Shown in pieces: positions 4,851 to 63,805 of a DNA stretch of 64,000 nucleotides. Numbering within the stretch: position 1 is the first letter of the stretch; each line of letters opens with the position of its first letter. The stretch comes from an uncultured Bacteroidota bacterium. GTDB taxonomy: Bacteria > Bacteroidota > Ignavibacteria > Ignavibacteriales > Ignavibacteriaceae. A program made the translations under genes and the position numbers. The notes beneath the pieces were generated by a model. That model ran no database searches. It saw only the letters and a program-made list of their open reading frames with translations, and was not told where the DNA came from. The stretch covers positions 12,835 to 76,834 of the forward strand of contig CAWBBX010000101.1 of assembly GCA_963787005.1 (NCBI GenBank), read 5' to 3'.

Positions 4851-6182
4851 TCACAATTTTATAACTGCCCTGCCGACTGAGTAATAAGTGAATTTAATTT
4901 TTCTCATTACCTCAAGGTCGTACAAATTTCTTCCGTCGAAGATAAGGGGCACTTTCAGTAAAGATTTAATCTTATTGAAGTCCGGATTTCTGAATTCATT
5001 CCACTCGGTAACGATGATCAGGGCATCGGCATTATTGAGCGCTTCGTAAGCCTTATCGGCGTATTCGATCTTATCCCCTATAATTTGTCCGGCCGTTGCC
5101 AAAGCTTCGGGATCGTACGCCTTTACAGACGCGCCGCCGCCGGTTAAAAGTTCCACTAATTTTAAAGAAGGCGCTTCTCTCATATCGTCGGTATTGGGCT
5201 TAAACGAAAGTCCCCACAGCGCGAAATGCTTTCCTTTTATATCACCGTTGTAATGCTTCAAAATTTTATTGAAGAATAACTCGATCTGCTTTTTATTAAC
5301 ATCAATAACGGATTTAAGAATTTGAAAATCGTATTTGTTTTCGTTAGCGGTGTTCACAAGAGCGACCACATCCTTCGGAAAACACGAGCCGCCGTATCCT
5401 ACTCCCGGGAAAAGGAAGCGCTTGCCTATTCGAGAATCGGAACCTACACCGATTCTAACTTTGTCAACATCGGCACCGGTGAGCTCGCAGAGATTTGCTA
5501 TTTCATTCATATAGGAAATCTTCGCTGCAAGGAAGGAATTCGCGGCGTACTTAGTCATCTCGGCCGATTTTTCATCCATAAAGTAAACGGGATTTCCCGA
5601 GCGAACGAAAGGCTCGTAAAGCTGGGCCATAACCTTTCTCGTCTTCTCGCTGCTTGTGCCTATAACAACCCTTTCGGGTTTTAAGAAATCATCGACCGCC
5701 ATGCCTTCTCTCAAGAATTCAGGGTTCGATGCGACATCAAATTCAAAATCGGGAGCATGCTGTTTAATTTTCTCCCGTACTTTATCGCTGGTACCTACAG
5801 GGACCGTGCTTTTATCGACTAAAATTTTATATCCGATTCCCGGTTCATCTTTAAAAAGTTTTCCTAGATCTTCCGCCACGCCGAGAACATATTTCAGATC
5901 GGCGCTGCCGTCGGCGTCCTGAGGAGTAGGCAGACACAGAAAAATTATTTCTGATTTTCTTACGGCTTCATAAAGATCTGTAGTAAATGTTAGTCTCCCG
6001 TCTCCTATATTTCTTTCGAATAAAACTTCCAGCCCGGGTTCGAATATAGTAATTGTTCCGCCCCGGAGCTTCTTAACTTTTTCTTCGTTATTATCGACGC
6101 ACAGAACATGATTGCCTGTTTCGGCGAAACATGTGCCGGAAACCAGTCCGACATACCCGGTTCCCACAACCGCAATATTCAA
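4851..6182 (-). CDS. ugd: UDP-glucose 6-dehydrogenase
   Basis: N-terminal Rossmann VVGTGYVGLVSG, catalytic GGSCFPKD, 443 aa. Confidence 0.9.
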   Translation of the reverse strand: MNIAVVGTGYVGLVSGTCFAETGNHVLCVDNNEEKVKKLRGGTITIFEPGLEVLFERNIGDGRLTFTTDLYEAVRKSEIIFLCLPTPQDADGSADLKYVLGVAEDLGKLFKDEPGIGYKILVDKSTVPVGTSDKVREKIKQHAPDFEFDVASNPEFLREGMAVDDFLKPERVVIGTSSEKTRKVMAQLYEPFVRSGNPVYFMDEKSAEMTKYAANSFLAAKISYMNEIANLCELTGADVDKVRIGVGSDSRIGKRFLFPGVGYGGSCFPKDVVALVNTANENKYDFQILKSVIDVNKKQIELFFNKILKHYNGDIKGKHFALWGLSFKPNTDDMREAPSLKLVELLTGGGASVKAYDPEALATAGQIIGDKIEYADKAYEALNNADALIIVTEWNEFRNPDFNKIKSLLKVPLIFDGRNLYDLEVMRKIKFTYYSVGRAVIKL

Positions 6183-6300
6183 TTAAACCTCCTGAATTTT
6201 GACCTAAAATATAAACAATGAGAGTTTAAGTTGGAAGGAGATGAAAATATGAATGAAATTATATAAAATAATTTTGATGAAAAGATTTGCCTCTAAAGGC

Positions 6301-7833
6301 TTACATGTTTTGAAGCAGACCGCCGAGCTTATCCGCAAGCAAGTCCATGTCAACCGGTTTTTTGAGAATGATATTTACGCCTATATTCTGAAATTCTTTT
6401 TTAATATTTTTATCGCCGTCCGGTATTACGGCAACAACGGGTATCTTCTGATTTTTATCTTCAAGCCTGATCATGTTGATGAACTGAACCCCGTTCATCA
6501 GCGGCATATCGTACACCGTTATTACAAGCGAAGGAAGCTTGTCGAAAAATTTCTCGATCGCTTCGTAACCGTTCTTCGCGCAGATAATTTCGAAGCGGGA
6601 GAATTTTTTGTTTATAACTTCATCGAGCCTAGCCATGTCGGCCGCATTATTATCAATTAATAAAATCGAATCCTTCGAGCGCGGAATTGTGAAGTGGAAT
6701 TCGCTCCCTTTTTCTTTTTCGGAATAGAACCAAACCTCGCCGTTGTGTTTTTCAACTATTTCTTTTACGAGCGAGAGTCCGAGTCCGGTGCCTTTTTCGC
6801 CCTTTGTTCCTTCGGTAGAAAACATCTTTTCAAACTTAAAAATCTTAGCCTTATTATCCTCAGAGATTCCTTTCCCTTCGTCTCTAACTACAAACTCTAC
6901 GAAATTGATGTTGAAGACATCAGCGAAAACTTCTATCGATTTTCCCTCCGGCGAAAATTTAATGGCGTTGCTGATAAGATTGGTAATCACCTGGCTGAGC
7001 AGACGCTCATCTGCCTGAACATAGATGTTATCCTCTACGGTAACCTTGATGTCGATGTTTTTTCTTATCGCGTTACCGGTAAGCGATGAAACACAGTTGA
7101 ACACAAGGCTTTGCGCATGCAGCCGCTGAGGCTCTATCTTAATTCTTCCCGTTTGAAGCCGCGACCAATCAAGAAGATAATTAATAAGCTGAAGCTGGTT
7201 CTGAGAGGAGTCGTTAATGTAGCTAAGGTATTCGAGTTGTTCTTTGTGCGAAAGATTCGGTTCGTTCATGAGTATTTCCGAAAATCCGAGTATGCTTGTA
7301 AACGGGGCCCGGAGATCGTGAGAGAGCACGGAAATAAATTTATCCTTTGATGCGTTCAGCGACTGCAGGCCCTCGAGTGTTTTAACCTGCCGCAGCTCTT
7401 CATTCTTTATATCGGAAACATCGCTGACAAATCCGTTATATGCTTTAACAATGCCGTTCTCGTCCCTTTCTACCGAGATGCTCTCTTTAATCCAGGCAAT
7501 TCTTTTATTCTTTTTAACTATGCGGTAAGTGAGAGTAATAAAATTAGATGAGGTGTCGGCCGCAAATTCGCTCATCACTCTTTTTACACGATGAATGTCG
7601 TCTTCAAAAAGTATCGCGGCACCGTGACCTGGGAAATGACTGACCTCACCACCCGAGTATCCTGTGACCTCTTTTATATTTTCCGAGTAATATACTTTTT
7701 CTCCGTCCCGGTCTATAGTTGTCTTCCAGAAGAAACAGTCTCGCAGTCCGACCGCAAAACCGGCGGGAAAACCGTTGTTCTTTGACTCCTGTTTTATCTT
7801 AGTTGTTTTTGCGACCGTCTTTCTTTTTCCCAT
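6301..7833 (-). CDS. hybrid sensor histidine kinase / response regulator (PAS-HisKA-HATPase-REC)
   Basis: H-box SVLSHDLRAPFTSI, N-box NLISNAIKF, G-boxes DEGKGI and GTGLGLS. A C-terminal receiver follows (ILLIDNN...DMPLMNG). Confidence 0.85.
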   Translation of the reverse strand: MGKRKTVAKTTKIKQESKNNGFPAGFAVGLRDCFFWKTTIDRDGEKVYYSENIKEVTGYSGGEVSHFPGHGAAILFEDDIHRVKRVMSEFAADTSSNFITLTYRIVKKNKRIAWIKESISVERDENGIVKAYNGFVSDVSDIKNEELRQVKTLEGLQSLNASKDKFISVLSHDLRAPFTSILGFSEILMNEPNLSHKEQLEYLSYINDSSQNQLQLINYLLDWSRLQTGRIKIEPQRLHAQSLVFNCVSSLTGNAIRKNIDIKVTVEDNIYVQADERLLSQVITNLISNAIKFSPEGKSIEVFADVFNINFVEFVVRDEGKGISEDNKAKIFKFEKMFSTEGTKGEKGTGLGLSLVKEIVEKHNGEVWFYSEKEKGSEFHFTIPRSKDSILLIDNNAADMARLDEVINKKFSRFEIICAKNGYEAIEKFFDKLPSLVITVYDMPLMNGVQFINMIRLEDKNQKIPVVAVIPDGDKNIKKEFQNIGVNIILKKPVDMDLLADKLGGLLQNM

Positions 7834-9406: not shown

Positions 9407-9578
9407 TTACTCTTGCTCTTAATCTTTGCCAAATATTCCCCGGAGTTTAAGTAAAAGTTAAAGAGTAAAATTAAGAAGTATTATTATGGTTAATCAAAAT
9501 TTCCTCTGTGCCTCCGTGTTCCTGCCTACCGGCAGGCAGGTCTGTGGTAAAGATAACATTGGGGCCATACACCTAAAC

Positions 9579-24914: not shown

Positions 24915-24989
24915 AAATTTGTCTGTTGTAAGTTGTTTGTGGTTTGTTGTATGATTTAATTTAATATAGCGTTAAAATTAATTAAAAAG

Positions 24990-25109
24990 GATGAAAATCC
25001 GTAGCGCAGACTATTAGTCTGCGCAATAAAAAAAAGATGAAATCCGCAGTGCAGACTATTAGTCTGCGCAATTATAAACCAAGCACGCAGACCGGTGGTC
25101 TGCGCTACG
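24990..25109. repeat. cluster of three REP-like palindromes
   Basis: GTAGCGCAGACTATTAGTCTGCGC (25001-25024). A tandem degenerate copy with duplicated flank (25046-25069). An inverted copy, GCACGCAGACCGGTGGTCTGCGCTAC (25083-25108). Confidence 0.6.
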
Positions 25110-25139
25110 TAAAATCAACAGCCGCCGGCCAACAGCCGA

Positions 25140-34949: not shown

Positions 34950-35465
34950 TTACCTCACAAGTTTTGATATCTTTTCCGTCAGCGCCTGCCTGGCCCTGAA
35001 CAGTCTGCCTTTAACCTGACTTTCCTCAATGTTCAATATGTTCGCAATCTCTTTGTAGCTGAGTTCCGAATACTGCCTGAGAATAAAAGCTTCCTTTAGA
35101 TCCTCTCTCAACTCCGCTATGCCGTTTTGTATAAGCTCCTTTATTTCGGCGCCTTCAATCTCGCCGGCAAGATCTTCGCCCGACCTATATTCCGCATCTT
35201 CCTTTATCCCGTCTTCTTTCCTTACCCTTTTCTTGCGAAGGTGCATATAAACTTCGTTCCTCGCCGTTGTATAAAGCCAGGGTATTACGCTCTGCGACTG
35301 CCGGATGTTCCCGAGATTTTCGTACAGCTTTAAGAACACGTTCTGTGTTATATCTTCCGCAATAAACTTTTCGCTCAGCATTTTATATACATAGTTATAA
35401 AGCTGGGTTTTGCTCCGGTTATATACCAGCGTAAAGTCTATTATATTTGAAAAGCTTTCGGCCAA
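34950..35465 (-). CDS. ECF-type RNA polymerase sigma factor
   Basis: Region 2 (DITQNVFLKLY...WLYTTARN) and region 4 (LSYKEIANILNIEESQVKGRLFRARQAL). Confidence 0.88.
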   Translation of the reverse strand: MAESFSNIIDFTLVYNRSKTQLYNYVYKMLSEKFIAEDITQNVFLKLYENLGNIRQSQSVIPWLYTTARNEVYMHLRKKRVRKEDGIKEDAEYRSGEDLAGEIEGAEIKELIQNGIAELREDLKEAFILRQYSELSYKEIANILNIEESQVKGRLFRARQALTEKISKLVR

Positions 35466-35474
35466 AGGCTTTCC

Positions 35475-36170
35475 TTAATTGGATTTTGCAGCTTTTTGAA
35501 AATGATTCTTCTCCACTAGCGCATTAATCCTGTCCATAGCATAGCTGACCAGTTTCTTATCCTTATCTTTTCCGAGAGTTAAATATTTCTGATAATATTT
35601 TATAGCGATAGTTTTATCCTTGTAATAATGATCGTATACCGCGGCAATGTAGAAGATCAGTTTTTTATTATCGGGATTTTCCCTGAACGCGTCCTGGTAA
35701 TATTTAAGAGCTTCGGAATAATTTTTCTGCGCATAATACGAAGCCGCTATCTGTGTACGCACCTCCGCAAGAAAATCGTTCTGCTGAAGCTTTGCCGATA
35801 TCGAAAGCTCTTTGATCGCATCGTCGTACCGCTTGAGCTCTTTATAGCACATTCCCAGATAATAATACGCCGCCGGATCGCTATCCATTAATTTGATAGC
35901 ATGCTTTAAATAAAAAACCGCGGTATCGTATTCAGTAAGCCAGAAATGCGATACACCCATATTCCTGAAATTCACTTCGGTCGAGTCCCCGTAATCTATG
36001 GAATTCTGAAAAGCCGTTACAGCGCCTTCATAATCCTTCAGCTTAAAGTTTATATTGCCTTTCAATGTCCACATTGAAGATGAACTCGGATAATACTTAA
36101 GTCCGTCGTTTATAATTCTGGTTGCGGAAATATATTGTTCTTTCGACATATAAAGTCTGCTCAGTTCCAT
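35475..36170 (-). CDS. TPR-repeat protein
   Basis: 231 aa of TPR repeats with no signal peptide. Its frame stays open upstream of the Met into the end of the preceding ORF. Confidence 0.65.
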   Translation of the reverse strand: MELSRLYMSKEQYISATRIINDGLKYYPSSSSMWTLKGNINFKLKDYEGAVTAFQNSIDYGDSTEVNFRNMGVSHFWLTEYDTAVFYLKHAIKLMDSDPAAYYYLGMCYKELKRYDDAIKELSISAKLQQNDFLAEVRTQIAASYYAQKNYSEALKYYQDAFRENPDNKKLIFYIAAVYDHYYKDKTIAIKYYQKYLTLGKDKDKKLVSYAMDRINALVEKNHFQKAAKSN

Positions 36171-36184
36171 TACCGTACTTTCAT

Positions 36185-36772
36185 TTAAGAGGATTGAGCT
36201 CTGTGTGCTATTTGAAAATCAATAATCGCGTCGTCGATGTCCTTCAAAATAAATTCGCAGTGCGCCTGCTGCTCGTAATAAAAGCTATTCGTAGAATCCT
36301 GCTCCGCAAGAGTTCTGTAAGTATCATCGGCGTCTATCCACTTATGCTCGCGCATATAGACTTCGCCGAGAGACCGGAGCAGCAGTGTATTTGTAGAATC
36401 GATTACATATGCGTATCTAAGGACAGAATCGGCGTCACTGAGCCTCCCCGAGGATAAAAAGCTTCGGCCGAGAAGAATTTGTAATTTCAGCTTCCCCGGT
36501 TTTAATTTTACGGCTTTTTCAAAAAAGTCGGAAGCCTTTGTAAAATTTGAAAGGGATTGATAATTCAGGCCGAGATTGTATATAACCTCGTAATTATCCG
36601 GATCATCCGCCAACAATTTTTGAAGGATAGAAATTGATTGATGGTAATTCCCTTCCATCATCAGCATTCTGACTTTATTCAGCTCATCCTCCTTGCCGCT
36701 CTGTGCCGCGGTAAATGCAGGAATAATGATGAACAGAATAAGCAGAAAATAAATTCGTTTTGTTTTATGCAT
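36185..36772 (-). CDS. secreted TPR-repeat protein
   Basis: Signal peptide MHKTKRIYFLLILFIIIPAFTAAQS, then TPR repeats. It ends 14 nt before the next TPR ORF. Confidence 0.65.
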   Translation of the reverse strand: MHKTKRIYFLLILFIIIPAFTAAQSGKEDELNKVRMLMMEGNYHQSISILQKLLADDPDNYEVIYNLGLNYQSLSNFTKASDFFEKAVKLKPGKLKLQILLGRSFLSSGRLSDADSVLRYAYVIDSTNTLLLRSLGEVYMREHKWIDADDTYRTLAEQDSTNSFYYEQQAHCEFILKDIDDAIIDFQIAHRAQSS

Positions 36773-37503
36773 TATATTACCCGGTTTTCCCCGAAAAATG
36801 GGCTTCTATATGTAAAGATGATCGAACGGCGGAAAAGTTTGGGTGGAATGATATTTTTTTTGTGGAGACGCGCCATGGCGCGTCTCTACTACATAATTGC
36901 CGGAAGCATAAAATGTAGGGCGAAGCTCATCGCATCGCCCTACAAAACAAAAACCTTCGGGGTTACTTATAAATCCCGATGGTTGCATAAAAATCGTAGG
37001 GACAACTCATGAGTTGTCCCTACATCGTATTAATATTACCTGAGTAACCTTGAAGGTCTTGAAAAGCGACCTTCAAGGTTTAAATCTATTTTAATATTAG
37101 AAATGAAACTGCACCAGGAACATTTCGTTTTTAACCGAAGAAGAGAAAAGTTTGAAAGAAATGATATTTTTTTGTAGAGACGACCCGGAAAAATGAGACA
37201 CCCCACCGGGGCGTCTCTACGAAAATTTGTTGGTATCATTTAAAGATAAACCATCGGGGTTACCTTCAAAACCCCGATGGTTGCATAAAAATCGTAGGGA
37301 CAACTCATGAGTTGTCCCTACATCGTATTAATAATTATACTCGAGAAACCTTGAAGGTCTTAAAAAGCGACCTTCAAGGTTGAAATAATTTTAATAATAG
37401 AAATGAAACTGCAAGAGGAACATTTTCGTTTTGAACCGAAGAAGATTTTATTCTCAGCTTATTAAACAAATTTCGCTTGCTTTTTGTTTGTAACTGAGGG
37501 ATA

Positions 37504-37626
37504 TCAGTGATTAAGAGACGTATTTAGAATATTTTCCTTATAATTACTCGAAGAGACTATATCCTTACTGCAACCATTTAAAAATATTAAATATATGATT
37601 ATTGTATATAGATATGTTTTTTTCAT
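37504..37626 (-). CDS. possible 40-aa lipoprotein-like small ORF in the unique insert of the array
   Basis: MKKTYLYTIIIYLIFLNGCSKDIVSSSNYKENILNTSLNH*. It has a lipobox-like LNGC, and GGGGGAATAATT precedes the ATG. It is short and could be an N-terminal gene remnant. Confidence 0.25.
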   Translation of the reverse strand: MKKTYLYTIIIYLIFLNGCSKDIVSSSNYKENILNTSLNH

Positions 37627-38138
37627 AATTATTCCCCCATATTTAATATTAATCATCTATGTGATTAATCATTGTTAATATCTTTTATTAACTAAGCAAG
37701 ACTATATAATTAAAGATGTTTTTGACTTAGAAAAGTTTGAGAGGAATGATATTTTTTGTAGAGACGGGGCAACATGTCCCAATGCTTCGGGATGCCCGTT
37801 TCTGCATCGAAATGCTATGAAAAATGAGACACCCCACCGGGGCGTCTCTACGAAAATTTGTTGGTATCATTTAAAGATAAACCATCGGGGGTTACCTTCA
37901 AAACCCCGATGGTTGCATAAAAATCGTAGGGACAACTCATGAGTTGTCCCTACATCGTATTAATATTACTCGAGTAACCTTGAAGGTCTTAAAAAGCGAC
38001 CTTCAAGGTTGAAATAATTTTAATAATAGAAATGAAACTGCAAGAGGAACTTTTCGTTTTGAACCGAAGAAGAGAAAAGTTTGAGAGGAAGAAGATTTTT
38101 TGTAGAGACGACCCGGCGGGTCGTCTAAATGCACATAC

Positions 38139-38173
38139 AAAAAAAATGAGACGCCTCACCGAGGCGTCTCTAC
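38139..38173 (-). terminator. Rho-independent terminator-like module inside array unit 4
   Basis: On the minus strand: GAGACGCC-loop-GGCGTCTC followed by ATTTTTTTT. Weaker equivalents (shorter T runs) occur in units 2 and 3. Confidence 0.5.
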
Positions 38174-38676
38174 GAAGACTCTTTGCATTAAGAAACCTTC
38201 GGGGTTACTTTCAAAACCCCGATGGTTGCATAAAAATTGTAGGGACAACTCATGAGTTGTCCATACATCGTATTAATATAACTGAGTAATCTTGAAGGTC
38301 TTAAAAAGCGACCTTCAAGGTTAAATAATTGTAATATTAGAAATGAAACTGCACGAGGAACTTTTCGTTTTTAACCGAAGAAGAGAAAAGTTTGAAAGAA
38401 ATGATATTTTTTTGTAGAGACGACCCGGCGGGTCGGCTCTACTAAAAATATTATTGATTACATAATTGCGGGGCGAAGCTGTGCTTCACCCTACAAAACA
38501 AAAACCTTCGGGGTTACCTTCAAAACCCCGATGGTTGCATAAAAATCGTAGGGACAACTCATGAGTTGTCCCTACATCGTATTAATAATTACCTGATTGA
38601 GCAACCTTGAAGGCTTGCCTGCCGGTAGGCAGGGCAGGCAAGTCTTAAAAAGTGACCTTCAAAGTTTAAATCTATT

Positions 38677-39801
38677 TTAATAATAGAAATGAAATTGCAC
38701 TAGGAACACGTCGTTCTTTACAGAGGGCGATTCGAACTGGAACCTGTACTGCGGCCGGACTTCAACAAAGCTGTACGGGAAGAACTCGGCGCCGACAATA
38801 AATCTCGATACTTCGTCTCCGCTAACACTCGTGTTGGGATCAAATTTATCGTAGCGTAATATTCCTTCCAAGCCTTTTACTATTCTGTATGAACCTTTAA
38901 GCATAAGAGCAGATGAGTTAGCGCCCACCGATTCGTAATCGCTCGCCATATCGTATTCACCCATCAGCGTAAAATTACCTACTCCGAATCCCGCGTAACC
39001 TCCGTACATATTAATTTTATGCTCTGTAGGTAGCGGCGTGTAAATAAGAGGACCGCGGAAATTTGTATACGACGCTCCGAGCAGAACCGCTACCTTGCTC
39101 GCTATTACCGGATTAACCTGTATGCTCGCAGTGTATGTGGGATCGCTGTTGAAGTTTAAATTAACGGGACTCCCGACGCTGGCCGTTATCAGCCCGACAT
39201 CACCTATATTATAGCCGAGCTCAACGCCTGTAACGCTGTACCTGGGATCGAATATTAAACCTCTCCTTTGATTTGTGGTAAACAAGTAGCCGAGGTCTCC
39301 GCCTCGCGTGTACGCCGTATGATCATCTATGCGCAGACCGAAATCAGGATAAAAAGTACCGGCTTTAACGTAGCTTTCGTTGGGAAGAATATGCGCTACC
39401 GCGAACGCCTCCCACGTCTGGTTTACAAAATCATATTGTGCGTAAGCGTTGATTTCATCGCTCAGATCAACGTTTGTATACATAGTACCTTCCATCTTCT
39501 GGAATGCGGTCTTGCCGAACTGCTGGGAGTAAACGTATTGAGTTCTATAATCCAATCCGACTTCAATATTATCGGCGATGTGATTATCCATCTTAAAAGA
39601 TTTATCTCTCGGCGAGACTAGCGGAAGAACTTTCCAGCCGAAATGCCAGCCGCCTTTGTTCCTCATTCCTCCGCCGGTAGGATCGATGTGGCAGTCGATG
39701 CAGCGGGCCCCCATTCTGAGCGCGAACCTGGGAAGAGCGTAGCTGCTGCCGATCCCCATAAAAATAAAAGCGGCAATCATAAAATACTTGGTATACTTCA
39801 T
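38677..39801 (-). CDS. fused monohaem cytochrome c / outer-membrane beta-barrel protein (Cyc2-like architecture)
   Basis: Start set at MKYTKYFMIAAFIFMGIGSSYA (signal peptide). A single CIDCH follows ~11 residues after the predicted cleavage site. About 340 aa of beta-strand-like alternating sequence then end in ...VFLVQFHFYY*. Confidence 0.55.
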   Translation of the reverse strand: MKYTKYFMIAAFIFMGIGSSYALPRFALRMGARCIDCHIDPTGGGMRNKGGWHFGWKVLPLVSPRDKSFKMDNHIADNIEVGLDYRTQYVYSQQFGKTAFQKMEGTMYTNVDLSDEINAYAQYDFVNQTWEAFAVAHILPNESYVKAGTFYPDFGLRIDDHTAYTRGGDLGYLFTTNQRRGLIFDPRYSVTGVELGYNIGDVGLITASVGSPVNLNFNSDPTYTASIQVNPVIASKVAVLLGASYTNFRGPLIYTPLPTEHKINMYGGYAGFGVGNFTLMGEYDMASDYESVGANSSALMLKGSYRIVKGLEGILRYDKFDPNTSVSGDEVSRFIVGAEFFPYSFVEVRPQYRFQFESPSVKNDVFLVQFHFYY

Positions 39802-42804: not shown

Positions 42805-42838
42805 AAACCTCCTAGGTTTAAGAAAACCTCGGAGGTTT
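42805..42838. repeat. 34-nt double-hairpin element
   Basis: AAACCTCCTAGGTTT-AAGA-AAACCTCGGAGGTTT. It is the reverse complement of 63772-63805 with one mismatch. Confidence 0.55.
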
Positions 42839-47720: not shown

Positions 47721-49481
47721 ATGAGACTTCTTTATTTATACCTCAAGCGATACTGGAAGCTCGTACTGCTTGCCTTGGTGCTCGCGGCGGTCAACCAGGT
47801 GTTTTCGCTGTTAGATCCCTATATCTACCGTATAGTAATAGATAAGTACGCTACAAAGTTCAGCCAATACACGACCGAACAATTTTTTAAAGGCGTGCTG
47901 CTTCTGCTGGGTGCCGCGGTAGGCGTGGCGTTTGTTTCAAGGCTGGCAAAGAACTTCCAGGACTATTACGTGAACGTAATTACCCAGCGGCTGGGTGCGA
48001 AGATATATAACGACGGTATCAAGCATTCTCTTGAACTTCCCTATTCCTTATTTGAAGATCAGCAGAGCGGACAAACCCTGGGAGTTCTTCAGAAAGTAAG
48101 AACGGACGTTGAAAAACTTATAACAGCGGTTATTAACACACTCTTCACTTCGCTTGTCGGAATTATTTTCGTTACCATTTACGCAATTAACGTCTACTGG
48201 CTTATAGCGCCGGTATTCTTTTCGGCCATTCCCCTTTTAGGTATTATCAGCTCGGTACTAAGCAGAAAGATTAAAAAGATACAGAAGGTAATTGTAGCAG
48301 AAACGACTGCGCTTGCCGGCACTACGACGGAGTCGCTTAGGAATATCGAACTAGTTAAAAGTCTTGGGCTAGGCCAGCAGGAGATCGAGAGGCTGAACTC
48401 AACGACGGATAAGATATTAATACTTGAGCTGAAAAAAGTAAAATACATCCGGAGCCTCAGCTTCATACAGGGTACGTGCGTAAACTTCTTACGCACATCA
48501 ATTATTTTCCTCATGCTTTACCTGATATTCATCCAGGCCATAACCGTCGGAGAGTTTTTCTCTTTGTTTCTCTATTCGTTCTTCATCTTTGGTCCGCTGC
48601 AGAGTTTGGGCGACATAATAAATACATACCGCGAGGCCGAGGTTTCGCTGAATAATTTTGAAGAGATACTAAGTCTTCCCGTGGAATCTAAGCCGGACAA
48701 GCCGGTAGCTCTCGGCACCCTTGAATCGCTAGAATTTTCAGACGTGGCGTTCAAACACCTTTCGGCGACAAACAATGCTTTGAACGGGATCAGCTTTAAA
48801 GTAAACCGCGGGGAGACGATAGCATTCGTTGGGCCGTCCGGATCGGGCAAAACTACCCTGGTAAAGCTTCTCGTCGGACTTTACCTTCCAAAAGACGGCG
48901 AGATACGTTACAACGGTTATCAGGGACAGACTATAGATTTCGACGAGCTGAGGGAAAAGATAGGATTCGTTACTCAGGATACGCAGCTCTTCGCCGGAAC
49001 AATTAAAGAGAATCTTTTATTCGTTAATCCGGGTGCTAGCGATGAGGAATGCCTCGATGTTTTGAACAAAGCCGCGTGCGGGAACCTTCTGGCCAGGGCC
49101 GACAACGGACTTGACTCAATGATTGGAGAAGGCGGTGTAAAAGTTTCGGGAGGTGAGAAACAGCGACTCTCCATCGCGAGGGCACTGCTGAGAAGGCCGA
49201 ATATTCTAGTATTCGACGAAGCTACATCCGCACTCGATTCCCTCACCGAGGAAGAGATAAGCAAGACGATAAGAGATGTCTCCGGTAAAAAAGATCTTAT
49301 TACCATTCTCATCGCACACAGGCTTTCGACGGTTCTTCACGCGGATAAGATATTCGTGCTCGAGAAGGGAAGGATGATCGAGTCGGGTACGCACGAAAAG
49401 CTGCTCGAGCTTAAAGGACTTTATTACGCTATGTGGCGTCAGCAGATCGGCGAGCGTGAAAGAGAGACTTATACCGCTTAG
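47721..49481 (+). CDS. ABC exporter, fused permease/ATPase (MsbA/multidrug type)
   Basis: Six-TM N-terminal half, Walker A GPSGSGKTT, signature VSGGEKQR, Walker B ILVFDEATS. Confidence 0.9.
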   Translation: MRLLYLYLKRYWKLVLLALVLAAVNQVFSLLDPYIYRIVIDKYATKFSQYTTEQFFKGVLLLLGAAVGVAFVSRLAKNFQDYYVNVITQRLGAKIYNDGIKHSLELPYSLFEDQQSGQTLGVLQKVRTDVEKLITAVINTLFTSLVGIIFVTIYAINVYWLIAPVFFSAIPLLGIISSVLSRKIKKIQKVIVAETTALAGTTTESLRNIELVKSLGLGQQEIERLNSTTDKILILELKKVKYIRSLSFIQGTCVNFLRTSIIFLMLYLIFIQAITVGEFFSLFLYSFFIFGPLQSLGDIINTYREAEVSLNNFEEILSLPVESKPDKPVALGTLESLEFSDVAFKHLSATNNALNGISFKVNRGETIAFVGPSGSGKTTLVKLLVGLYLPKDGEIRYNGYQGQTIDFDELREKIGFVTQDTQLFAGTIKENLLFVNPGASDEECLDVLNKAACGNLLARADNGLDSMIGEGGVKVSGGEKQRLSIARALLRRPNILVFDEATSALDSLTEEEISKTIRDVSGKKDLITILIAHRLSTVLHADKIFVLEKGRMIESGTHEKLLELKGLYYAMWRQQIGERERETYTA

Positions 49482-49484
49482 TAC

Positions 49485-49565
49485 CCGTAGCGCGGACCAC
49501 CGGTCTGCGCATTTGAAATTTTTTAACCTTTATACATACGCGGACCGGTGGTCTGCGTTACGGGA
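49485..49565. repeat. inverted REP doublet (REPIN-like)
   Basis: CCC-GTAGCGCGGACCACCGGTCTGCGC, a 27-nt spacer, then ACGCGGACCGGTGGTCTGCGTTAC-GGG. Same family as 25001-25108. Confidence 0.6.
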
Positions 49566-49587
49566 AAAACATTTACGGACTTAATAT

Positions 49588-55939: not shown

Positions 55940-55994
55940 TTTAAAGTTTCCGGAATATTCTGAAATAATTTTCTGGTCCTTTCGGCATTAATGA

Positions 55995-56022
55995 GGTAGG
56001 GACAACTAATTAGTTGCCCCTG
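55995..56022. repeat. diverged isolated copy of the array 28-nt palindrome
   Basis: GTAGGGACAACTAATTAGTTGCCCCTGC, compared with GTAGGGACAACTCATGAGTTGTCCCTAC. Confidence 0.5.
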
Positions 56023-56063
56023 CAAAATACTCTACTGCTAATATCGGAATTTTAATCAAACAA

Positions 56064-63668: not shown

Positions 63669-63771
63669 AATGGTCCGCCGTTATTATACATATTAATCTT
63701 ATGCAAAAGTAAAGCTAAGGGAGCTAAAAATCAATTGAAGAAAAGCTAATCGAAATTGATAAAACCTCCGA

Positions 63772-63805
63772 GGTTTTCTTAAACCTCGGAGGTTTAATTC
63801 AAATA
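63772..63805. repeat. 34-nt double-hairpin element
   Basis: AAACCTCCGAGGTTT-TCTT-AAACCTCGGAGGTTT. An inverted copy of the same element lies at 42805-42838. Confidence 0.55.

Follow-up and report, generated by a model that had tools for sequence, protein, structure and literature searches.

Repetitive extragenic palindromes (REPs) headed by GTAG form superfamilies that lie mainly downstream of coding regions, and they have also been described as reiterated in tandem "along with flanking DNA" (Di Nocera 2013, PMC3733652). In that 2013 survey they were reported from Proteobacteria, Cyanobacteria, Chloroflexi and the PVC group (Planctomycetes, Verrucomicrobia and Chlamydiae) only (PMC3733652). 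As for the transposase genes that go with such palindromes, REPs inserted within tnpAREP itself are the hallmark of TnpAREP subclass 2.4 (Quentin 2018, PMC6006769). The DNA considered here is a stretch of 64,000 nucleotides (contig CAWBBX010000101.1; hereafter the window) from an uncultured bacterium of the Ignavibacteria, where the intergenic region between a gene for a 374-aa protein (38677-39801) and a gene for a tetratricopeptide repeat (TPR) protein (start at 36772) is filled by five head-to-tail units on the minus strand. We consider it very probable that this array is a REP cluster resembling the bacterial interspersed mosaic elements (BIMEs), and that it grew through tandem duplication at this site and through unequal crossing-over. 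A first-pass annotation of the same DNA had taken the iteration of a piece of neighbouring DNA for something unheard of in REP clusters, a view that does not hold, given that tandem reiteration with flanking DNA was already on record (PMC3733652).

The array spans 38730 down to 36832 of the minus strand, with units of 301-346 bp plus a single 284-bp insert (Table 1), their boundaries having been placed from a reading of the sequence. The five-unit organization proposed earlier was recovered both by Tandem Repeats Finder (TRF), which reported a period of 309, and by a repeat search of the window, which yielded five-copy families at the AAAAGTTTG anchors with the same spacings of 313, 585, 344 and 311. 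A MAFFT alignment of the five units, the check that the first-pass annotation had called for, gave a mean column identity of 75% with long invariant blocks, and the longest exact repeat in the array measures 84 nt. The order of modules is common to all five units: hairpin H1 (arms AACCTTGAAGGTC/GACCTTCAAGGTT), the palindrome REP1, hairpin H3 (arms AACCATCGGGGTT/AACCCCGAWGGTT), a slot occupied by further REPs, and a tail. H1, the palindrome with its following GATTTTTA, H3 and the variable slot hairpins were all found as they had been described, and each array copy of REP1 is followed on the minus strand by (G/A)ATTTTTA. The perfect palindrome said to occur in every unit is indeed present, except that the U2 copy (38239-38266) carries one mismatch (GTATGG). 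Altogether, 25 of the 57 strong hairpins counted in the window fall within 36862-38646.

Several features identify these hairpins as REPs. Three families of the array start with GTAG (GTGG in one copy), as REP heads do, and the REP1, GTAGAGACG and GTAGGGCGAAGC types have the short stems of REP palindromes, of 10-14 bp in the last two types. REPs and conserved linker motifs are repeated in tandem as in a BIME, so the likeness to BIME clusters noticed at first sight stands at the level of layout. Regarding the alternating REP orientation of BIMEs, REP1 is symmetric and has no orientation, and the GTAGAGACG REPs of units 2-4 come in inverted pairs, which in U2 and U4 lie 17-22 nt apart and could form one long hairpin. 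Palindromes of this kind are not confined to the array: other GTAG palindromes, among them those at 24980-25114 and 49466-49567, and AACC...GGTT hairpins are present at several intergenic sites of the window. Small palindromic repeats were listed at 24980-25114, 49466-49567, 55985-56024, 42805-42838, 63759-63798 and 9521-9540; they comprise GTAGCGCAGAC-type REPs in clusters of 3 and 2, a diverged REP1, AAACCTCSGAGGTTT doublets and CCTGCCTACCGGCAGGCAGG, the last of which matches the nested hairpin of U1.

The dispersal of REP1 beyond this locus was followed by scanning one genome per species with the 4-nt centre of the palindrome left free. REP1 was found in 81 genome stretches from Melioribacteraceae, Ignavibacteria and other metagenome-assembled genomes (MAGs), with four MAGs of Melioribacteraceae/Ignavibacteria showing 9-14 such stretches per genome on separate contigs, and it also occurs in Zixibacteria, Neomarinimicrobiota, Kangiella, Aequorivita and others. 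For most copies (79 of 88) there is no covering open frame with 150 or more codons, and a BLAST comparison of the units with these loci matched the palindrome and a few flanking bases only. At one of them (L068), REP1 copies at 4980 and 5688 flank a gene for a 171-aa protein (5102-5617), which also carries REP1 in frame, where it encodes VGTTHELSLQ. This protein shows an HUH motif (SNHFHGII) and a catalytic-tyrosine region (WQRSFYDRII...YIEENP), exceeds the Pfam gathering score for Y1_Tnp (27.5 bits vs 23) and matches the NCBIfam model 'REP-associated tyrosine transposase' (REP_Tyr_transpos; RAYT) with E = 8e-18, below the equivalog cut-off of that model. Homologues of the gene adjoin REP1 at seven more loci (L010, L021, L033, L036, L057, L062 and L077), and in L036 (~5949-6464) and L077 (~6765-7403) REP1 again lies inside the RAYT-like gene. 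In these three genes the in-frame REP1 sits between the HUH and tyrosine motifs and reads VGTTHELSLQ or GRDNSRVVPT depending on the frame. A REP1 that is both dispersed and associated with RAYT genes supports the REP/RAYT reading of the array, and the original proposal that the GTAG-headed palindromes are RAYT-linked REPs is sustained by the identical 28-mer that flanks, and sits inside, the L068 gene. An identical palindrome with a 13-bp stem (GTAGGGACAACTC..GAGTTGTCCCTAC) was seen in Ignavibacteria, Zixibacteria, Neomarinimicrobiota, Kangiella, Aequorivita, Patescibacteria, Altimarinota and an 'archaeon' MAG, and its presence in such distant lineages suggests either horizontal spread of RAYT/REP systems or binning contamination. 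Neither REP1 nor the H3 motif was present in viral contigs.

How the array grew can be read from the orthologous locus, recovered from seven relatives in the order dxr, 374-aa gene, (TPR), extracytoplasmic function (ECF) sigma factor and anti-sigma factor. In five of them (L082, L083, L084, L108 and L109; 67-74% protein identity) a single spacer of 160-280 bp carries an ordinary terminator hairpin and no units, the single-spacer relatives being related at genus to family level. A closer one, L085 (~84% nucleotide identity), has a single 303-bp spacer, which contains the left arm of H1 bearing the same nested TTGCCTGC...GCAGGCAA hairpin as U1 and continues with a GTAGAGACGC...GCGTCTCTAC REP, a tail and a promoter like those of U5; the GTGGAGACGCGCCATGGCGCGTCTCTAC hairpin of U5 (36862-36889) matches the REP of this single-copy relative. 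L085 therefore joins the left edge of U1 to the right edge of U5, which is what a tandem duplication predicts, with the outermost halves of the array as the ancestral flanks. The remaining relative, L089 (~82% nucleotide identity), shows H1, REP1 and H3 after the gene, and its contig ends 131 nt past the stop codon, an end compatible with a repeat-induced assembly break.

The unit junctions tell the same story of a single origin. Three uninterrupted junctions are alike, with CAAACTTTTC running directly into TCTTCTTCGG, and the junction between U3 and U4 shares both breakpoints, which the 284-bp insert separates. Such identity points to one founding join followed by amplification and disposes of the idea of tandem paralogous genes that decayed independently. 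The right-hand end point of the duplication falls inside a conserved motif, CAAACTTTT(C/T)-N11-(G)CATCTTTA-N-ATAGA, which alone within the spacer is conserved at every orthologous locus (alignment; L108); in L084 and L108 the ECF sigma gene follows it directly. Full matches to the motif numbered 2, against 0.04 expected. Its AACTT-N16-TCTTTA layout is one that we take to resemble ECF-type promoters, and the motif is probably an autoregulated promoter of that type. Every unit ends at the -35 half, which is the anchor used in the first-pass annotation, and complete copies of the motif follow U5 and U3. Moreover, the modules are shuffled among units: U3 does not differ from U4 in three of its modules, namely the gene-end copy, H3 and the first slot hairpin (100% identity), the tails of U1 and U4 are likewise 100% identical, and the U1 slot resembles that of U5, a mosaic that indicates unequal crossing-over or gene conversion. 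Among the five units, U1 alone has a nested hairpin, of 29 nt, cleanly inserted in its H1.

A second line of evidence comes from the gene ends carried by the units. The last 54 nt of the upstream gene, which take in its final 17 codons, are the first segment of U1, so that, of the five decayed gene-end copies originally claimed, the similarity is real, and the count has to be changed to one real end and four decayed ones. This similarity is far above chance, reaching 87% over 83 nt (38642-38724 vs 37056-37138); along the gene-end segment, real end and copies agree at 75-79% over 53 aligned columns, and the copies are 91-100% identical to one another. When codon changes were polarised with five orthologues, the copies were found to retain GTT, AAA and CAG as in the outgroups, where the living gene has the synonymous GTA, AAG and CAA. 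The copies in turn carry the replacements D>E, V>K, K>Q and V>L, premature stops (U2 and U5) and a 1-nt insertion (U4). The real end has thus changed almost only synonymously and the copies have accumulated missense changes, stops and an indel, which places the gene under purifying selection and the copies outside it, in agreement with what had been claimed for the latter. Since GTA and AAG of the living gene are shared with L089, the first pseudo-copy is probably older than the L089 split, although few sites are behind this dating. Taken with the orthologous loci and the junctions, the polarity of these substitutions fits the earlier suggestion that the gene end and its terminator region were duplicated serially.

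From these data a sequence of events can be proposed. The ancestral state would have been one spacer of ~250-300 bp with small palindromes, as in L085, between the outer-membrane gene and the operon promoter, to which the RAYT-associated GTAG REP (REP1) and the H3 hairpin would have been added in this lineage. One illegitimate join, whose position is visible at the junctions, would then have connected a point just after the -35 box of the promoter with another ~54 nt before the stop codon, possibly through microhomology or slippage and perhaps favoured by the palindromes. Such a join would make a duplicated block consisting of gene end, hairpins and -35 half, and unequal crossing-over together with gene conversion could have expanded it to five copies, shuffled the modules into the observed mosaic and kept the copies similar. 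The displaced gene ends would have remained as non-coding fossils free to decay, the real end tolerating almost only synonymous change.

With respect to function, REP1, H3 and the GAGACRCC hairpins resemble terminators of the minus strand by virtue of their T tracts, and on this strand GC-containing stems followed by T tracts are predicted as in intrinsic terminators. Ten terminator-like sites lie on the minus strand and 12 on both strands, compared with 2.6 +/- 1.8 in shuffled sequences, which upholds the statement that most hairpins face as terminators for the minus strand. Relatives without REPs have a conventional terminator at the same place, and for this reason the REP1 of U1 is predicted to be, probably, the working terminator of the upstream gene, the other copies being redundant. 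Most likely, judging from these predictions, the array has no role beyond that of ~10 stacked terminators of the Rho-independent type, or of hairpins at mRNA 3' ends, and is otherwise neutral or selfish DNA. Such a stack would insulate the upstream gene from the downstream promoter.

Some points weigh against a REP cluster grown by tandem duplication. The join point falls outside the REPs, which leaves any direct part of REPs or RAYT in the duplication hypothetical. No RAYT homologue was found in the 64-kb window and only one REP1 occurs there outside the array, a diverged copy at 55995-56022; the RAYT gene and the genome-wide REP1 copies that we infer for the source organism come from its relatives, and the terminator or insulator function is a predicted one. 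The insert lies exactly at a unit junction and opens with promoter sequence, which a simple single-junction history does not fully explain. Lastly, the number and order of the units depend on one metagenome-type contig of 78 kb, whose assembly is plausibly correct.

Among the alternatives, one keeps the REPs at the centre and holds that clusters of this kind grow by a RAYT- or hairpin-dependent mechanism in which a REP is copied along with ~240-310 bp of the DNA beside it. Its basis is offered by the similar periods seen here and in two other loci with two-copy tandem repeats of REP1 plus flank, L048 (1-490; 283 bp) and L059 (145-460; 239 bp), where the reiterated flank is 76-106 nt; both loci are from relatives, and both repeats came out of the repeat search and were missed by TRF. 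These two-copy repeats also count in favour of the tandem-duplication reading preferred here. If the mechanism were RAYT- or hairpin-dependent, the capture of gene ends and promoter halves would be routine, and changes in the copy number of such arrays would adjust the level of read-through into the ECF sigma operon from the upstream gene. We regard this mechanism as improbable, and we give a comparably low probability to the number and order of units being an assembly artefact, in which a repeat graph was mis-traversed during metagenome assembly. The break of L089 inside its first unit, typical of repeats, and the frameshift in the neighbouring TPR gene would suit such an artefact, but the units differ in every module, with slots that are only 31-76% identical except for U3 and U4 (whose shared part is identical), the nested insert of U1 and the 284-bp insert are unique, large k-mers or read pairs could span an exact repeat of 84 nt, and L089 independently has H1, REP1 and H3 after the orthologous gene.

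A functional RNA on the minus strand, either a long structured 3' untranslated region or a tandem family of ~300-nt small RNAs, seems about as doubtful. The units do fold into very stable structures (z = -8.8 on the minus strand), there are the 10 hairpin-plus-T-tract sites of that strand, a G-T pair is tolerated on the minus strand only, and slot hairpins differ from each other by one compensatory change (CCTC/GAGG vs CCCC/GGGG). Nevertheless, the plus strand folds as well (z = -8.5), as expected for DNA palindromes, and Rfam gave no match at E <= 1. The covariation term of RNAalifold was positive, that is, unfavourable: only 2 of 63 pairs showed double changes, neither of them in H1, REP1 or H3; nearly all pairs of these three are invariant, and the copies are too similar to inform covariation. 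Stem mismatches show no consistent strand bias on reading the sequence, the units reiterate -35 halves and have no complete promoter of their own, and the first strong terminator would be expected to stop most transcription. Equal folding of both strands, the lack of an Rfam match and the lack of covariation leave the two RNA hypotheses put forward at the outset with no positive support.

Least probable of all, and highly improbable by our estimate, is a small non-autonomous mobile or integrative unit that carries or targets the gene end, each serial insertion supplying a replacement end and displacing the earlier ones. The largely synonymous differences between the real end and the copies recall, at first sight, prophage-borne replacement gene ends, and the clean 29-nt insertion in the H1 of U1 indicates that small hairpin elements do move here. 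Yet the whole unit was not found elsewhere in the window or in 110 fetched loci, and its edges are all local DNA; the junction, searched for as a 23-mer in metagenome contigs, gave 0 matches, and a 19-mer of spacer plus H3 gave 18, about the number expected by chance, none of them with the unit. Neither terminal inverted repeats nor target-site duplications could be read in the sequence, and the right edge is the -35 box of the local promoter, in the same place in relatives that have no array. An imported gene end, a candidate raised by the synonymous bias, was rejected because the outgroups place the synonymous changes in the real gene and not in an imported copy. Apart from this, two otherwise unrelated metagenome contigs (L094 396-419 and L097 987-1014) contain exact matches of 24-28 nt, too long for chance, to the spacer and left arm of H3 (TTTTTATGCAACCATCGGGGTTTT), in both cases with no right arm.

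The surroundings of the array deserve some comment. The insert had been described as 285 bp of unrelated DNA; it is there, with 284 bp, and at its start stands the promoter-like motif in a second full copy, apart from which no DNA similarity was found anywhere. In the same way, the array is coding-free in that it holds no conserved coding sequence, although the insert contains an orphan open reading frame (ORF) of 40 codons, for which a protein homologue search returned none. This ORF has a GGGGG ribosome-binding-like site and lies downstream of the second full motif. Downstream of the array, the TPR gene is frameshifted relative to L085 (tblastn frames): the minus-strand gene at 35475-36772 is split near 36170-36200 into two ORFs (195 + 231 aa), where the L085 orthologue is a single protein of 409 aa, and it is either a pseudogene or affected by a sequencing error. 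A search with the TPR protein for contigs entering the array from the right found the window's own protein only. Further along in the operon, the ECF sigma gene occupies 34950-35465. Upstream, the 374-aa protein has 424 homologues at E <= 1e-5, of 374-381 aa, with C34, C37 and H38 invariant across 20 of them, and it matches no Pfam or NCBIfam family. Its family shows an invariant N-terminal CXXCH, a C-terminal aromatic residue and conserved synteny, the neighbours being dxr and rseP to one side and the ECF sigma and anti-sigma genes to the other, and the protein may be a haem-binding outer-membrane barrel. The 90% cluster of this protein also files three unrelated membrane-like proteins of 55 aa (P0121, P0123 and P0125; MLWWVLTGITSFILLMF...), apparently a clustering artefact of the collection.

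Table 1. Coordinates of the array, its modules and the adjoining genes, in positions of the 64,000-nt window
Feature	Position	Strand	Length	Content	Basis
U1	38730-38385	minus	346 nt	Gene end 38677-38730 (real); H1 with 29-nt nested hairpin 38610-38646; REP1; H3; GTAGGGYGAAGC-type REP 38468-38494; GTAGAGACGACC REP 38414-38442; tail closing in CAAACTTTTC	Alignment, sequence, hairpin census
U2	38384-38074	minus	311 nt	Decayed gene end SVKNEKFLVQFHF followed by stop; H1; REP1 with one mismatch; H3; slot with inverted GTAGAGACG REP pair 38092-38183, REPIN-like; tail with -35 half-site	Sequence, alignment, repeat search
U3	38073-37730	minus	344 nt	Gene-end copy, H3 and first slot hairpin 100% identical to U4; second slot REP long-looped	Alignment
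Insert	37729-37446	minus	284 nt	23% GC, exactly at unit junction; starts with spacer and -10 half completing the second motif copy
U4	37445-37145	minus	301 nt	Gene-end copy with 1-nt insertion; slot REP pair collapsed; tail 100% identical to U1 tail	Alignment
U5	37144-36832	minus	313 nt	Gene-end copy with early stop; slot with GTAGGGCGAAGC...GCCCTAC 36914-36944 and GTGGAGACGCGCCATGGCGCGTCTCTAC 36862-36889	Repeat search, alignment
REP1 copies	36996-37023, 37294-37321, 37926-37953, 38239-38266 (one mismatch), 38548-38575	none	28 nt	Palindrome GTAGGGACAACTCATGAGTTGTCCCTAC
Promoter-like motif, complete copy	36806-36841	minus		CAAACTTTTC-N11-CATCTTTA-N-ATAGA, with the TPR / ECF sigma / anti-sigma operon downstream
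Promoter-like motif, second full copy	~37704-37739	minus		After U3, opens the insert
-35-only halves	37146-37154, 38075-38083, 38386-38394	minus		End the other units
Orphan ORF in insert	37504-37626	minus	40 codons	MKKTYLYTIIIYLIFLNGCSK..., lipobox/lipoprotein-like signal
TPR gene	36185-36772	minus		Opens the TPR / ECF sigma / anti-sigma operon; bounds the array on the right	Pfam, tblastn
Upstream gene	38677-39801	minus	374 aa	Conserved outer-membrane-type protein with invariant CXXCH ('cytochrome-porin' of the first-pass annotation)

The locus extends GTAG-type REP/RAYT systems, BIME-like clusters included, to a genome of the Ignavibacteria/Melioribacteraceae type, and it makes the growth of such a cluster unusually legible, both end points of the duplication being readable as coding sequence on one side and a conserved promoter on the other. 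Four fossil gene ends preserve ancestral codons of the living gene. There is also a warning for annotation, since arrays of this kind break short-read assemblies and generate spurious ORFs.

When compared with the GTAG REP clusters already described (Nunvar 2010, PMC2817692; PMC3733652), the array shares the GTAG-headed palindromes of 28-30 bp, the coexistence of several families per genome, the location mostly downstream of genes and the tandem arrangement with flank. It departs from them in its host, of an Ignavibacteria/Melioribacteraceae type from a class (Ignavibacteria) and a superphylum (the FCB group, Fibrobacteres, Chlorobi and Bacteroidetes) unlisted in the 2013 survey, in a REP1 that is a perfect palindrome with both GTAG and CTAC ends and hence of undefined orientation, and in a reiterated flank that runs 54 nt into coding sequence at one end and into a promoter at the opposite one. 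With TnpAREP subclass 2.4 (PMC6006769), the L068 protein has in common the NH[IFV]H, WQ and YIxxNP motifs and a REP1 that is both in frame and flanking, with the difference that the gene was found in relatives only and none lies in the 64-kb window. The BIMEs of Escherichia coli are similar mosaics of REPs and conserved non-REP linker motifs set head to tail, extragenic at gene 3' ends and variable in copy number among relatives, but they consist of REP pairs of ~40-100 bp, whereas the array has a period of ~310 bp with 5-6 different hairpins per unit and no strict alternation of one REP type. REPINs are reportedly REP doublets that form hairpins (Bertels and Rainey, 2011). The inverted GTAGAGACG REP pairs in the slots of units 2-4 are like them, although only this slot sub-module is REPIN-like, the whole unit being no REPIN and showing no sign of movement. 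No new kind of element or mechanism is revealed by the array: the phenomenon is already known, and what is particular here is the host clade, the long composite unit and the readable end points.

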